Assembly: GCA_944377165.1 (NCBI GenBank)
Contig: CALWEJ010000002.1
Span: 2,912-66,911, forward strand
Source: an uncultured Clostridia bacterium
GTDB lineage: Bacteria; Bacillota; Clostridia; Christensenellales; UBA1242
DNA length: 64,000 bases
Reading direction: 5' to 3'
Each line of letters begins with the position of its first letter. The first letter of the stretch is position 1. The position numbers were made by a program, and so were the translations under genes. Shown in pieces: positions 18,376-46,185 of the stretch. The notes below the pieces were generated by a model, which was not told the DNA's origin, searched no databases, and saw only the letters and a list, made by a program, of their open reading frames with translations.

Positions 18376-18450
18376 TGGAGCTGGTGACGGGAATCGGACC
18401 CGTGACCCCCACCTTACCAAGGTGGTGCTCTACCGCTGAGCCACACCAGC
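18376..18450 (-). tRNA. tRNA-Thr (anticodon GGU), element-borne, CCA encoded
   Basis: revcomp = GCTGGTGTGGCTCAGCGGTAGAGCACCACCTTGGTAAGGTGGGGGTCACGGGTCCGATTCCCGTCACCAGCTCCA. All four stems pair. The T loop is UCCGAUU, which is non-canonical at position 55. Confidence 0.85.
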
Positions 18451-40878: not shown

Positions 40879-41406
40879 ATGGCAAAGAAAAAATCAGCAA
40901 GTAAACGAAGCGAACGCGTAGCCTTTGATTTTTCGATTGACAGCAAAACTAGTAAGAATGCGAAAAAATCAGTAAAAAAATTGGGCAAATCTGCACTTGT
41001 CGCGGTAGTTGTATTTTTAATAATAGGACTTGCATTAGGTGGCGGATTAACATATTATTTTACGCAAGATGATTGCTTCGAATTAATAGGAGCAGATGAA
41101 ATAACTTTAACCCTAGACGAAACGTACTTAGACCAAGGTGTGAAAGTTATATCATTTGGTAAAGATATGTCGTCAAAGGTGCAAATTAAAACAGATTTAG
41201 TGAAAAATGATGACGGAACATATTCGCCGTCTAAAGATAGTGACGGATTATATAATGTAGGGACTTATTATATGGTTTACACTGTAGATTGCTTAAAATA
41301 CGGTACTATTTTTAAAATAGAAAAAGTTAGACTAATTAATTTCGTAGAAGCAAGTGACGATGACGTTATAGATGAAATTTCATCGGGCGAGGTGAACAAT
41401 GGGTAA
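40879..41406 (+). CDS. Membrane-anchored protein with an Ig-like (DUF5011-like) domain
   Basis: A basic N-terminus, one TM helix, then ELIGADEITLTLDETYLDQGVKV, a pattern typical of bacterial Ig-like domains. Confidence 0.55.
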   Translation: MAKKKSASKRSERVAFDFSIDSKTSKNAKKSVKKLGKSALVAVVVFLIIGLALGGGLTYYFTQDDCFELIGADEITLTLDETYLDQGVKVISFGKDMSSKVQIKTDLVKNDDGTYSPSKDSDGLYNVGTYYMVYTVDCLKYGTIFKIEKVRLINFVEASDDDVIDEISSGEVNNG

Positions 41407-42601
41407 AAAGATTTTATTTAGTTTTCTCGCGCTTGTAATCGGTTTTGTCGGTGGTGTAATTGGATTAGTTTACATAAATCTGCCGTTGACTGATGTGCTT
41501 GAAATTGGCTCAACCTTATATTATTCTAATACAGAAACTAGTATAAGTACTGAGGCAATCGCACTTCAAGACGACCAATTATCTATTCATTTCTTAGAGT
41601 TGGGGAACAAATATACTGGCGATTGTACATATATAAAATATGGTGATTTAGATATTTTAATTGATTGCGGTTCTAAAACAAATAGTATTCCTACTGTACA
41701 AGCATACCTTAATCAATATGTGACGGATAACACACTCGAGTATGTAATTGTCACGCACGCACATACTGACCATTATGCTGGGTTCACACTTAAAGATGGA
41801 AGCATTTTTGATTTGTATGATTGCACAACAATTATAGATTTTGGAGATGCTTATGCTAAGGAAACAAACACTTTAAATCGATACATTTCTGAGCGCGATG
41901 ATGAGCTAGCGCTTGACGGAACAGAAGGTAAAGAATATAGATATTTTGATGCTTCAACGATAGAAAAAGGAAACAATTTAACCTTTTATAGCGATGATAA
42001 TAAACTTGAAATAGAAATTTTGTTTAATGAACTAGCATACAATCAAGCAACAGGAATAGATAAGTCTTCTAGTAGGTCAAATAATGAATATTCGGTTTGT
42101 ACTCTAATAACCTTTGATGAGAAAAGTTATTTATTTACTGGCGATTTAGAGGAAGAAGGCGAAAATTTATTGGTTGAAAATAATCCTTCAATTAATGCAG
42201 ATAATTTACCTAATGGAGTTGAAATTTATAAGGCAGGGCACCACGGAAGTAAAACATCTTCGCACGAAAAATTGTTGCAAAATATCAATCCTAAGCGCGT
42301 ATGCGTATGCTGTTGCGCGGGGAGTCCAGAATATACAGACAATGTTGCTAATCAATTTCCTACACAAGAGTTCATCGACAGAATAGCAAAATATACGGAC
42401 GAAGTTTATGTGACAACACTTTGTGTAAATTGGGATACGGACGAATTTGTTTCTATGAATGGCAATATGGTTGCGATTGCAACTGAAAATGAAGAAATAT
42501 GTATGGTGTTTAGTAATAATGATATAAAATTAAAAGATAGTGAATGGTTTAATACTACTCTCGGCGACGGAACAAAAATGAGAGTATGGCCTACTAATTA
42601 G
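41399..42601 (+). CDS. MBL-fold metallo-hydrolase, ComEC C-terminal-domain-like
   Basis: An N-terminal TM helix, then ILIDCGS, VTHAHTDHYAGF and YKAGHHGSKTSS. Overlaps the upstream ORF by 8 nt. Confidence 0.7.
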   Translation: MGKKILFSFLALVIGFVGGVIGLVYINLPLTDVLEIGSTLYYSNTETSISTEAIALQDDQLSIHFLELGNKYTGDCTYIKYGDLDILIDCGSKTNSIPTVQAYLNQYVTDNTLEYVIVTHAHTDHYAGFTLKDGSIFDLYDCTTIIDFGDAYAKETNTLNRYISERDDELALDGTEGKEYRYFDASTIEKGNNLTFYSDDNKLEIEILFNELAYNQATGIDKSSSRSNNEYSVCTLITFDEKSYLFTGDLEEEGENLLVENNPSINADNLPNGVEIYKAGHHGSKTSSHEKLLQNINPKRVCVCCCAGSPEYTDNVANQFPTQEFIDRIAKYTDEVYVTTLCVNWDTDEFVSMNGNMVAIATENEEICMVFSNNDIKLKDSEWFNTTLGDGTKMRVWPTN

Positions 42602-42924
42602 CTAAATTTTAAAATTATATGTAATTTTCAATTTTTGCGCTCAAATTAAACTATGATTATAACAAAAATATATGTCTAAATATGAGCAAAGTATTATTTT
42701 AAAAGATAATAAATTATCATATATAACCGATTAAATGCTATCATTACGCTTATGATAAAAATTGTTAGTTATTGGCATTATTATGATTATTATTAAAAAA
42801 CATATTAAATGATATAAAAATCTAATTTTAAAATTTTAGTTTAATATATTTAAAAAAGTCATTTAAAAATTGTGATATAGTTTATCAATAAAAATCTAGT
42901 TAATTTTATAGAAATTTTAAAGAT

Positions 42925-42953
42925 TTGACATTTTTATATAAATATGGTAATAT
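42925..42953 (+). promoter_or_regulatory. Near-consensus sigma-A promoter (TTGACA-17 nt-TGgTAATAT)
   Basis: TTGACA at 42925-30, a 17-nt spacer ending in TGG, and TAATAT at 42948-53. Confidence 0.6.
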
Positions 42954-42959
42954 AATATT

Positions 42960-43542
42960 ATCACGAAGGTGCAGTATTCTAGTCAACTAGAATAGATGAG
43001 AATGCCGAAATAAGCATTGTTGGCACAACTATGAAGTTCGTGGTGCTGGCTTTGATTGCCCAAATCGGGGCTGGTACTGGGAGTTAAGATTTTTGGGTCG
43101 CGTATAATGGCATATATGTTTAAACCCAATTATCGCGGAGACCTAAGTTGGTAAATCTAAAATATTTGTATCAGCAAATGTTTTTCCTTATCGCTTGGGG
43201 TAGAAACCTGCATGTGGCGAAAGTTATATGCAGTGTAGCCTGCTTTGAGTGGGCAATTAGGGATAAAGCGACAACTTTATTTAAACGAAGTACAAGTTAA
43301 GATGAAGTTGCTTTTGAAATATTGCCTGCAAAATTAAGATAAATCTTTTCGATGTTGTTAAGGAAAACTTCTAGGCTGTTAGTTTAACTAGACAGATTGG
43401 GGATTATAGTGTGGTCTAAGTGGCGATTCGGTGCAAGTTCTGCGTAAAGGGAAACCGCTTAGTGGGTGACTGCTAAGTGCAGAATTGGGAAATCCAACCG
43501 AACCTAAGCCGCAAGGTTTACTCAATTTGTTGCCTTCGTAAT
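42960..43542 (+). ncRNA. Large (~585 nt) structured non-coding RNA candidate; size class of ROOL/GOLLD/OLE, identity unverified
   Basis: No ORF of 60 aa or more on either strand from 42602 to 43521. G+C by hand count is about 33-53% per 60-nt line, against about 8% in a flanking spacer line. A closing helix ACGAAGG(42963-69)/CCTTCGT(43533-39) and many local hairpins are present, some with GNRA-like loops. Confidence 0.55.
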
Positions 43543-43573
43543 TTTATAATAATTTGCTTTATGCAATGTACAT

Positions 43574-44122
43574 ATGAAACAAAAACATAATAGAAAGAAA
43601 TCTGAAAGAGCGTGGGTATGGTCAGTAAAAATTTTATTTCTTGCTGTCCTTCTTTCTTTAACTTTTAGCATAGTAAGCGAGTTAGTACTGTCTAACGCAG
43701 CGCTAATTATTGCGATAATAGTAATATTGGTATTTATTTTTATCAGTGTATTATTTGACGTATTAGGGCTTGCTGTTGCATCATCTAACATTGAACATTT
43801 TACTGCTATGGCTTCACGTAAAGTTAAGGGAAGTAAGCAGGCGATGTCATTAAATAAAAATGCAGATAAGGTCGCTTCAATTTGTGATGTAATAGGTGAC
43901 GTATGTGGAATATTATCTGGTGCTGCCGGTGCGAGTATTTTAGCAAAAATTGCTATTAGTGGAGGATTTGTCGAAATTTTAATACCTTCGCTTATCTCTG
44001 CAATAATAGCAGGATTAACCATATTCGGTAAGTCAGCATTTAAAAAATATGCCTTAGTTCACGCTAATAAAATAACTTTAAAATTTGCTCGATTTATAAA
44101 TACATTTACTAGAAAAGATTAA
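43574..44122 (+). CDS. Integral membrane protein (possibly DUF21/CNNM-like TM domain)
   Basis: 182 aa with 3-4 TM helices. I preferred it over the overlapping antisense ORF 43522..44022 because of the terminator at 44124-48 and its membrane-protein-like sequence. No obvious SD. Confidence 0.6.
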   Translation: MKQKHNRKKSERAWVWSVKILFLAVLLSLTFSIVSELVLSNAALIIAIIVILVFIFISVLFDVLGLAVASSNIEHFTAMASRKVKGSKQAMSLNKNADKVASICDVIGDVCGILSGAAGASILAKIAISGGFVEILIPSLISAIIAGLTIFGKSAFKKYALVHANKITLKFARFINTFTRKD

Positions 44123-44123
44123 A

Positions 44124-44148
44124 AGGCTAAGCATTGCTTAGTTTTTTT
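44124..44148 (+). terminator. Rho-independent terminator
   Basis: GGCTAAGC-ATT-GCTTAGTT followed by T7. Confidence 0.7.
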
Positions 44149-44727
44149 ATAAAATTTTATTAAATAAATATAAGAGATATAAGCAAATAAATAATTAACA
44201 TAAAAGATAAAAATAATCAATATAGAAATTTTAAAAAATATAAAATTTAATTAAAAAATAATAAAAAAATAATAAAATAATAAAATAATAAAATTTAATT
44301 AAAAAATTATAGAAATTAAGTAAAATTGACAAAAATCAAATAAAAATTGATAGAAATTAAGCAAAAAATACAAAAATTAAATAAATATATAAAAAATATT
44401 ATAAAAATATATTTTTAATATTGAATTAAATTAATTATAAATGATATTTTTATAGATAAAATTTTGTAAAATGCACCAAATTACATATACTATGACTATG
44501 AAAATAAATCATAAATTAGTGCTTAAAAGATAATTGAAGTAGTTAATAAATTAATATTTAATTTTCACAATTAAATAAATTCTATTATAAACTTTTTATT
44601 GTTAAGTGTTTTACTTATTTAATTGTTGCATTAAATATAAAAATTTGATAAAATAATAGTACGAATTATTACGTTTAGTGCAAGATATGAGTGCTAATAA
44701 TTTGAATAATTATTATTAGGAGGGTAT
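44149..44727. repeat. ~580-bp extremely AT-rich low-complexity spacer with short tandem and dispersed words
   Basis: (AATAAAAT)x3 around 44268-44293. ATAGAAATTAAG occurs twice (about 44309 and 44350). Almost no G/C. Confidence 0.5.
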
Positions 44728-45375
44728 ATGAAGTTTACAAAAAGTTTAAAAGTTGTACTGTGCTGTTTATTAGTTCTATCTTGTGGTGGCATATTTATAG
44801 CTTGTGGCGAAGACAAAAATTTACTAACTTTTGATAGCTCAATGTTTGTGATTTATGGGGGAGATGGATATTACACTTATAATGGACAATCTTATATTTT
44901 TTCTGTTGTATACGGTAATAAAGAAATTGATGTTAGTTATTCTCTTGATAAAAAAGATTTCAAAAAAGACCTACAGTTAATAGACGCGAATACGTATCAA
45001 GTTTACTTTAAAGTTAGTGCTGAAGGCTATAAAGATTATGTGTCTAGTGAGCCAATAACTGTAAGAATTGTTGAAAGTACTTTAGAAATTAAAATTGATG
45101 ATATAACGTTAAATGAAATTCCTACTATTGAACCGAATTATACATCAACAATCATTTCTGGCGGAATTGCACAAAGGGACGAAACTGAAATTAATGAAAT
45201 ATTAAACGAAATAACATATGTGTTAAAAGACTCCCAAGGACAAGAAATTGAATTTGCAGATGTTGAACCAAATATTATTTACACAATTGAGGGGATTTTA
45301 CCCGATATCAGCGAAAATTTAGATAAAAATTACAATATATCACTTATTAATGGAACATTTTCGGTCATAGCATAA
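44728..45375 (+). CDS. Putative lipoprotein
   Basis: Signal peptide with lipobox IFIAC. RBS AGGAGGG. Confidence 0.65.
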   Translation: MKFTKSLKVVLCCLLVLSCGGIFIACGEDKNLLTFDSSMFVIYGGDGYYTYNGQSYIFSVVYGNKEIDVSYSLDKKDFKKDLQLIDANTYQVYFKVSAEGYKDYVSSEPITVRIVESTLEIKIDDITLNEIPTIEPNYTSTIISGGIAQRDETEINEILNEITYVLKDSQGQEIEFADVEPNIIYTIEGILPDISENLDKNYNISLINGTFSVIA

Positions 45376-45438: not shown

Positions 45439-46185
45439 TTAAATAAATAATAAAATTAAACTTAAAATGATTAAATATATTGAAAAATAATATAAATTAT
45501 TCTTTTTAACCACTTTTAACATAATATTTATTGATAATATTCCAAAAATAAATGAAAATATCATTACTATGAATATGCCTAAATAGTCTACAGATAAATT
45601 CAATGTAAATAATTTTATACCTTCATAGACGGCGCTTGCTATTATAATTGGAATACTCATTAAAAATGAAAAATCTAGTGCTTCTTGTTTATCTAGTCCT
45701 AACAATAGTCCGCAGACTAAGGTTGAGCCACTGCGCGATATTCCGGGAAATATTGCCAGACCTTGAGCTAATCCCATATATAAAGCACTAGATTTTTTTA
45801 TATATTTATTTTTCGTTTTTACTAAATCTGCGATAACTAGTGCGATTGCAGAAATTAAGAATCCCCATACGAGTGTATTAATAGAAAAACTATCTTCAAT
45901 ATATTTATTGAATAACAGCACAATTATTACAGTCGGAATCGTAGCGATTATTAAATTTAGATTTGTTTTGTTTATTGGGTGACGAATTAAGCTAAATAAT
46001 TTTTTCCTATAACAAAATAAAACGGCAAATAATGTACCAATATGTGCCACGACACTTAACAAAACAAGATTGTCCAATTCAAAAAATGAACCAAATAAGA
46101 CAATATGTCCGCTACTCGAAATTGGCAAAAATTCAGTTATACCCTGAATAAATCCTATAAAAACATATTTAAGTATTTCAATCAC
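45439..46185 (-). CDS. uppP: Undecaprenyl-diphosphate phosphatase
   Basis: GFIQGITEFLPISSSGHI and PGISRSG motifs in a polytopic membrane protein. GTG start after GAAGGA. Confidence 0.85.
   Translation of the reverse strand: MIEILKYVFIGFIQGITEFLPISSSGHIVLFGSFFELDNLVLLSVVAHIGTLFAVLFCYRKKLFSLIRHPINKTNLNLIIATIPTVIIVLLFNKYIEDSFSINTLVWGFLISAIALVIADLVKTKNKYIKKSSALYMGLAQGLAIFPGISRSGSTLVCGLLLGLDKQEALDFSFLMSIPIIIASAVYEGIKLFTLNLSVDYLGIFIVMIFSFIFGILSINIMLKVVKKNNLYYFSIYLIILSLILLFI

Follow-up and report, generated by a model that had tools for sequence, protein, structure and literature searches.

An OLE RNA without P13 and its membrane partner OapA in one apparent transcription unit of an uncultured Clostridia bacterium

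Between the open reading frames (ORFs) at positions 41399 to 42601 and 43574 to 44122 of the window, i.e., the whole 64-kb stretch of DNA that was analyzed, lies a gap of 972 bp, for which a first-pass annotation had given 920 bp. The other properties that it had ascribed to this gap were borne out: according to the ORF list, no frame of 60 or more amino acids starts inside it, the longest having 50, and the first 320 bp or so are AT rich and followed by a jump in G+C content, which amounts to 15.2% in the upstream spacer (positions 42602 to 42924, 323 bp; 100-nt windows as low as 11%) and to 40.1% in the stretch from 42960 to 43545, with 30.7% for the entire window. The features assigned to the locus, an ole gene with its promoter and the downstream gene oapA with its terminator, are listed in Table 1. 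The spacer 3′ of oapA (positions 44123 to 44727) has a G+C content of 12.9%; within it, positions 44150 to 44450 are extremely AT rich (3 to 10% G+C per 100-nt window), and loose direct repeats of 41 to 48 nt occupy positions 44234 to 44363. It is followed at positions 44728 to 45375 by a gene for a 215-aa protein with a lipoprotein-type signal peptide and without a Pfam family. The frame preceding the gap, on the plus strand, encodes a 400-aa MBL-fold protein that had been termed ComEC-like; its likeness to the C-terminal metallo-β-lactamase part of ComEC holds, but since only this part is matched (56 bits versus a cut-off of 190), the protein is not the full competence channel protein.

Table 1. 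Coordinates of the features of the ole-oapA locus within the window
Feature	Positions	Strand	Remarks
Sigma-70-type ole promoter	42925..42953	+	TTGACA 42925-30, 17-nt spacer, extended -10 TGgTAATAT 42945-53; 10/12 match, with TG
OLE RNA gene	42950..43552	+	RF01071 match; P1-to-P1 structured core 42963-43539 (577 nt)
P1, 5′ strand ACGAAGG	42963..42969	+	pairs with CCUUCGU 43533-43539; covaries
Conserved CAGUAUUCUAG	42972..42982	+	long-range partner CUAGGCUG 43371-43378
P4 hairpin AAUGC/GCAUU, A-rich loop	43001..43018	+	OLE model; 5 nt shorter than in L008/L009
P5/P5.1 hairpin, loop UGCCCA 43057-62	43037..43083	+	compensatory columns 113/141, 120-124/130-134
P6/P6.1 hairpin, loop AAUGGCAU	43088..43134	+	OLE model, alignment; supplants the first-pass pairing GGTCGCG.../...CGCGGAGACC
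P7, variable stem	43142..43199	+	14-nt insertion relative to the Rfam model at 43167-80
P8, 11-bp hairpin, GAAA tetraloop 43219-22	43206..43236	+	compensatory columns 280-287/294-301
P9, long arm, palindromic loop GUAC 43290-93	43241..43338	+	OLE model, alignment
Site of the missing P13	43432..43434	+	only GCA between P12.2 and P14; 21 model positions reduced to 2
P14 (AGUUCUGC/GCAGAAUU), conserved internal loop UAAAGGGAAACC, P14.1, P15 (GGGAAAUCC, 43487-95)	43435..43495	+	
Weak hairpin UUGC-UUUAU-GCAA	43554..43566	+	in the 34-nt OLE-oapA spacer, 8-10 nt before AUG
oapA	43574..44122	+	182-aa membrane protein; PF01595 CNNM/DUF21; basic N-terminus MKQKHNRKKSER
Intrinsic terminator CUAAGC-AUU-GCUUAG + U7	44127..44148	+	starts 5 nt after the oapA stop codon; read directly

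The whole window was scanned against the 4,227 families of Rfam 15 at the curated gathering thresholds. Family RF01071, the OLE (ornate, large, extremophilic) RNA reportedly due to Puerta-Fernandez et al. (2006), was matched with 355.5 bits (threshold, 50; E value, 8.2e-101) over model positions 1 to 616 of 616, i.e., without truncation. No match reached the gathering threshold anywhere in the window for ROOL, GOLLD, HEARO, raiA, RNase P, tmRNA, group I and II introns, or T-boxes, in agreement with the first-pass annotation, which had set aside RNase P, tmRNA, group II introns, and T-boxes and had counted OLE among its candidates; the Infernal search with Rfam that it recommended was decisive in favor of OLE, the sole match in the region. 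The only other Rfam match in the window is a tRNA gene on the minus strand (positions 18379 to 18450; 68.7 bits). In the model alignment, the invariant OLE blocks GCAGUAUUCUAGUCA, AUGAAGUUC, GGAGUUAAG, GGAGACC, GUGUAGCCUGC, UAAAGGGAAACCGC, GGGAAAUCC, ACCUAAGCC, and UUUAC are all present. A disrupted protein-coding gene, which would have spoken against a structured RNA, was looked for and rejected, as no ORF of more than 50 aa lies within the RNA on either strand and the covariance model covers the whole stretch. The host is of the expected kind as well, the closest loci belonging to metagenome-assembled genomes of the Clostridia/Christensenellales and thus to the Bacillota. The identity as OLE RNA is unambiguous, and nothing argues against it.

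Immediately downstream of the RNA lies a gene for a small membrane protein; in OLE loci, this place is typical of oapA, for whose product four transmembrane helices are predicted. The only Pfam match of the window protein is PF01595, the CNNM/DUF21 transmembrane domain (35.8 bits versus a cut-off of 28.4), and hydrophobic segments are present besides the basic N terminus; no NCBIfam match and no solved structure related by sequence were found for the protein. An exact match to it occurs on a contig assembled from run ERR4096565 (Logan). The assignment to OapA is based on this modest Pfam score together with the conserved position of the gene, rather than on a match to a dedicated OapA model.

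A scan with the OapA protein, covering one genome per species, returned eight loci, all from metagenome-assembled Clostridia (L002 to L009), including “Candidatus Onthoplasma” and uncultured Christensenella, Clostridiales, and Lachnospiraceae. Six of them are close (L002 to L007; 68 to 77% OapA identity) and two distant (L008 and L009; 33 to 34%). In all eight, a full-model OLE match (331 to 364 bits in the close loci, 455 to 466 bits in the distant ones) ends just upstream of the OapA homologue, so that the linkage to a DUF21-like gene, whose conservation had been proposed as a check, is indeed conserved. The gene order of L007 is that of the window, i.e., GltX, an Ig-like protein, the MBL-fold protein, ole, oapA, the lipoprotein-like 215-aa protein, UppP (on the opposite strand), and YchF. 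L002, L004, L005, and L006 have the same flanking genes with the ole-oapA pair inverted between them; L003 is devoid of the genes for the Ig-like, MBL-fold, and 215-aa proteins, and its ole-oapA pair, inverted too, is located between GltX and UppP/YchF. Both genes have thus changed orientation together while their flanks stayed the same, and the pair behaves as a self-contained two-gene unit. A switchable element was considered and rejected: the only inverted repeats at the borders of the cassette are low-complexity, AT-rich matches of 72 to 88%, none of them convincing, so that the inversions are to be seen as rearrangements in the course of evolution and do not speak for a switch. The uppP/bacA gene for undecaprenyl-diphosphate phosphatase (positions 45439 to 46185, minus strand, in the window) lies no more than two genes away from the ole-oapA pair, both in the window and in each of the six close relatives; according to the literature, ole is often clustered with isoprenoid and cell wall genes.

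A folding energy of −190 kcal/mol (z = −5.7) was calculated for the 586-nt stretch, none of 100 dinucleotide shuffles being as stable; together with the full-model match and the promoter, this agrees with the initial description of a large, ornate, stand-alone structured RNA with a promoter of its own. Covariation among relatives was assessed in an alignment of nine OLE sequences (the window and L002 to L009), a small sample with only two distant members, in which 44 of the 137 pairs predicted by RNAalifold show compensatory double changes. The terminal pairing ACGAAGG/CCTTCGT noticed at first pass is OLE stem P1, in which two G-C pairs are replaced by U-A and A-U in the two distant loci. For P1 and P2 taken together, 96% of the cells are paired, a value reached by none of 500 shuffles. 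We take the long-range stem between CAGUAUUCUAG and CUAGGCUG to be the P2 of the literature; its helices 2 and 3 are 97 to 100% paired, and an A-U pair is changed to G-C in L008.

The local helices listed in the first-pass annotation, whose coordinates were correct within 1 nt, fall into two groups. AATGC/GCATT, CTGCAT...ATGCAG, GCTTAG/CTAAGT, and CAAGTTCTGC/GCAGAATTGG are part of the OLE model, and the GNRA-type loop noted for the second of these was confirmed as the GAAA tetraloop of an 11-bp stem. The remaining three, TATTCTAG/CTAGAATA, GGTCGCGTATAAT/ATTATCGCGGAGACC (the GGTCGCG pairing of Table 1), and TCTAG/CTAGA, can pair in the window sequence but are absent from the model and are not maintained in the relatives (74% of the cells paired, with 183 of 500 shuffles doing as well); in two of these, the CUAG motifs used by the long-range stem are paired locally instead.

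The sequence elements associated with dimerization of OLE RNA are present in the window RNA, namely, an A-rich P4 loop, complementary P5.1 and P6.1 loops, and a palindromic P9 loop; in cryo-EM structures, these motifs form an RNA dimer (PMC12286853, PMC12265935). Specifically, P4 of the published numbering is a dimer contact (PMC12265935, PMC12286853), and a kissing contact has been described between P5.1 and P6.1 (PMC12265935), of which the GCC of the P5.1 loop (UGCCCA) and the GGC of the P6.1 loop (AUGGCA) are complementary here. The self-complementary P9 loop likewise serves as a dimer kissing contact (PMC12286853), and its GGCC was found to switch to GAUC or AGCU in the cryo-EM work of Kretsch et al. 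The loop reads GUAC in the window and in L002 to L006 and GGCC in L008, L009, and the Rfam consensus; GUAC is, beyond the quoted GAUC and AGCU, another palindrome, which would preserve the kissing contact. L007 alone has a shortened P9 (80 nt, about 20 nt less), the loop region of which reads AUAUAU.

With the full-length OLE RNAs of Halalkalibacterium halodurans and Clostridium acetobutylicum, the window RNA shares the size of about 580 nt, the order of stems P1 to P12.2 and P14 to P15, the conserved blocks, the complementary P5.1/P6.1 loops, a palindromic P9 loop, an oapA gene immediately downstream, and a host among the Bacillota (Clostridia). It differs from them in a 5-nt-shorter A-rich-loop hairpin, the 14-nt insertion in P7, the P9 palindrome GUAC instead of GGCC, and the absence of P13, through which the four-way junction becomes a three-way one. 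Moreover, ole has its own promoter and forms a two-gene unit here, whereas that of H. halodurans is part of a long polycistronic cluster (PMC12265935), and its host, uncultured, AT rich, and of gut type, is not a classical extremophile.

P13 is absent from the window RNA and from all six close relatives. The corresponding slot comprises 10 nt in the window versus 29 nt in the two distant loci, where the hairpin reads GAUG-C-UG-GCAA-CA-CAUC, with a GNRA loop and a one-base bulge. The deletion is exact and shared, and the adjoining stems are intact. In H. halodurans, P13 is the high-affinity, primary site for OapB and the GNRA loop of P14.1 a weaker second one (PMC7936274); the latter loop is retained in the window RNA (GUGA, positions 43466 to 43469, closing a 9-bp P14.1). 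P13 is found in most full-length OLE members but is not universal, and it is not family defining, since published variant 1 members lack it (PMC11332333). According to Fernando and Breaker (2024), these variant 1 OLE RNAs occur most commonly in TANB77, a clade of uncultured gut Clostridia with reduced genomes; the OapB site terminating P13 is often missing from them, their P7, P8, and P9 stems are shorter, and their hosts are largely without OapB and OapC, both of which are absent from the TANB77 and RF39 clades (PMC11332333).

The window RNA resembles variant 1 in that the OapB-binding end of P13 is missing, in a score about 100 bits below that of full-length representatives, and in the gut and fecal metagenome-assembled genomes that form its closest relatives. 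Its 355.5 bits, obtained with the Rfam model, lie numerically within the band of 310 to 390 bits that the authors gave on the scale of their own covariance model. P7 to P9, in contrast, are not shortened: compared with L008 and L009, P7 is longer (58 versus 44 nt), and P8 (31 nt in both) and P9 (98 versus 97 nt) are about equal. Among the nine sequences, P5, P6, and P8 do not vary in length, save for a P6 that is 1 nt shorter in L007. The nearest named relative, “Candidatus Onthoplasma,” is listed by NCBI under Christensenellales incertae sedis. As P13 is absent but P7 to P9 are not shortened, we file the RNA as a P13-less OLE RNA, a candidate rather than an assigned member of variant 1 in the strict sense. 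By analogy with what is reported for variant 1, the absence of P13 suggests that the particle of this lineage is probably a reduced one that does not depend on OapB. Among ten small ORFs (70 to 152 aa) scanned in the 64-kb window, there were no KOW/S1-like or L7Ae-type matches as would be expected of OapB- or OapC-like proteins. The first-pass annotation had held a new family possible and had listed a hit to a known housekeeping RNA covering the region among the outcomes that would speak against its reading; as far as novelty is concerned, the full-length match to RF01071 is an outcome of this kind, and the RNA is a member of an already described family, whose P13-less form was published in 2024, and is not new.

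A near-consensus promoter, noticed at first pass, was also found by the promoter scan. Taken by itself, such a match means little because the DNA is AT rich, and promoter-type sites in the window numbered 21 versus 15.4 expected. The ole promoter is nevertheless credible, since five of the six close relatives (L002 to L006) have TTGACA-17-TGnTAATAT equally far from P1, within spacers that are otherwise unalignable. Transcription is predicted to start near A42960, 3 nt before P1. We infer the start and the 3′ end of the RNA, as well as any processing from the oapA mRNA, from sequence features. The terminator scan detected none between OLE and oapA, as the first-pass annotation had remarked, and the two genes are apparently co-transcribed, a possibility that it had considered. 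For the palindromic stem of the terminator following oapA, the scan listed the minus strand only; a hairpin with a T-run is also located 3′ of oapA in L003 to L005 and L007 to L009. Overall, we consider it very probable (about 0.96) that positions 42963 to 43539 encode an OLE RNA and positions 43574 to 44122 its membrane partner OapA, both belonging to one transcription unit.

No Shine-Dalgarno (SD) sequence precedes the ATG at position 43574, as had been noted before, and the same applies to L002 to L007. The start context common to these loci and the window is UAUAUAUGAAACAAA; most genes of the window have an SD-like motif. In the two distant loci, oapA is preceded by AAGGAG, and the missing SD is therefore a trait of the clade and not a property of OLE. 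A hairpin of 3 to 6 bp, with a stability of only −2 to −3 kcal/mol, occupies the place corresponding to the weak hairpin of Table 1 in each relative, its sequence differing each time.

These features raise the question of whether a clade of AT-rich, uncultured Clostridia carries a distinct, streamlined ole-oapA module, which we regard as possible but unlikely. Such a module would be characterized by the loss of P13 only (and hence of high-affinity OapB docking), full-size P7 to P9, its own strong promoter, an SD-less oapA translated from a conserved AU-rich leader that contains a small covarying hairpin, and a cassette flipped in place. Should the missing SD and the hairpin reflect OLE folding or processing coupled to OapA synthesis, this would add a new facet of regulation to a system already known.

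The same observations could be explained by a mainly cis-acting role, in which the RNA would not be free but would govern, as an unusually long structured 5′ leader, how the SD-less oapA is translated. While the lack of an intervening terminator, the lack of an SD in seven loci, and the small hairpin 8 to 10 nt before the AUG are in line with this explanation, the same RNA precedes an oapA with an ordinary AAGGAG in L008 and L009, and in the species studied, OLE is an abundant RNA that binds OapA and other proteins (PMC12265935). We therefore assign a small probability to it, although the two roles are not mutually exclusive.

Less probable still is a decaying, nonfunctional OLE remnant in a reduced genome. 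The deletion of P13, the shortened A-rich-loop hairpin, the score about 100 bits lower than in L008 and L009 (355 versus 455 to 466 bits), and the apparently defective ole genes of some organisms without OapA (PMC11332333) might be taken as signs of decay, but oapA is intact and adjoining, the P13 deletion is exact and shared with intact neighboring stems, and the same RNA architecture is kept in seven genomes whose OapA proteins are only 68 to 77% identical to that of the window. In addition, compensatory base changes occur within the clade, and conservation extends to the promoter and to the loop-loop motifs of the dimer.

Membership in another ornate class, ROOL or GOLLD, or in a new family, which the first-pass annotation had suggested, with a leaning towards ROOL, by reasoning, not from a tool result, because of a size of about 580 nt near that of ROOL, the own promoter, and the AT-rich Bacillota host, is refuted by the full-model RF01071 match (the sole structured-RNA match in the region among 4,227 families; E value, 8e-101) and by conserved OLE blocks such as GCAGUAUUCUAGUCA, GUGUAGCCUGC, UAAAGGGAAACCGC, and GGGAAAUCC. 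ROOL and GOLLD are typically phage or prophage associated, and we know of no OapA partner for either. They resemble the window RNA as large, highly structured, self-assembling bacterial noncoding RNAs without established biochemical function (PMC12286853), but the window RNA shows no sequence or structure match to them at Rfam thresholds.

Under the reading as an OLE RNA with OapA, the extended −10 promoter would start transcription about 3 nt before P1, and ole and oapA would be read as one unit up to the U7 hairpin terminator after the oapA stop codon. As judged from H. halodurans and Clostridium, the RNA would fold into two domains, one comprising P3 to P9 and the other P1, P2, and P10 to P15, and, by homology, may dimerize via the A-rich P4 loops, the complementary loops of P5.1 and P6.1, and the palindrome in the P9 loop. 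The RNA would then be bound by an OapA dimer and held at the cell membrane, the P3 stems possibly crossing the bilayer. In the systems studied, oapA is the commonest immediate downstream neighbor of ole, and OapA is structurally related to the DUF21-family Mg2+ transporter MpfA, binds OLE RNA, and localizes it to the membrane; stress phenotypes concern short-chain alcohols, cold, high Mg2+, and poor carbon sources (PMC12265935, PMC11332333). By extension from H. halodurans and Clostridium, the ribonucleoprotein of the window organism would help against alcohols, cold, excess Mg2+, and poor carbon sources. In this lineage, the particle would be independent of OapB, the P13 site being absent.

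To our knowledge, no biochemical activity of OLE RNA has been established in any species. OLE is among the largest bacterial noncoding RNAs without an established biochemical function and, according to a recent proposal, its dimer spans the membrane. An extra copy in an uncultured gut-type Clostridium adds little by itself; its value lies in the annotation, the 972-bp “empty” gap being explained. The locus also represents a natural experiment, in that this lineage keeps OLE, OapA, and all dimer contacts yet has cleanly removed the OapB-binding hairpin. The loss of P13 with OLE and OapA kept fits the published view that OapA is indispensable and OapB is not.
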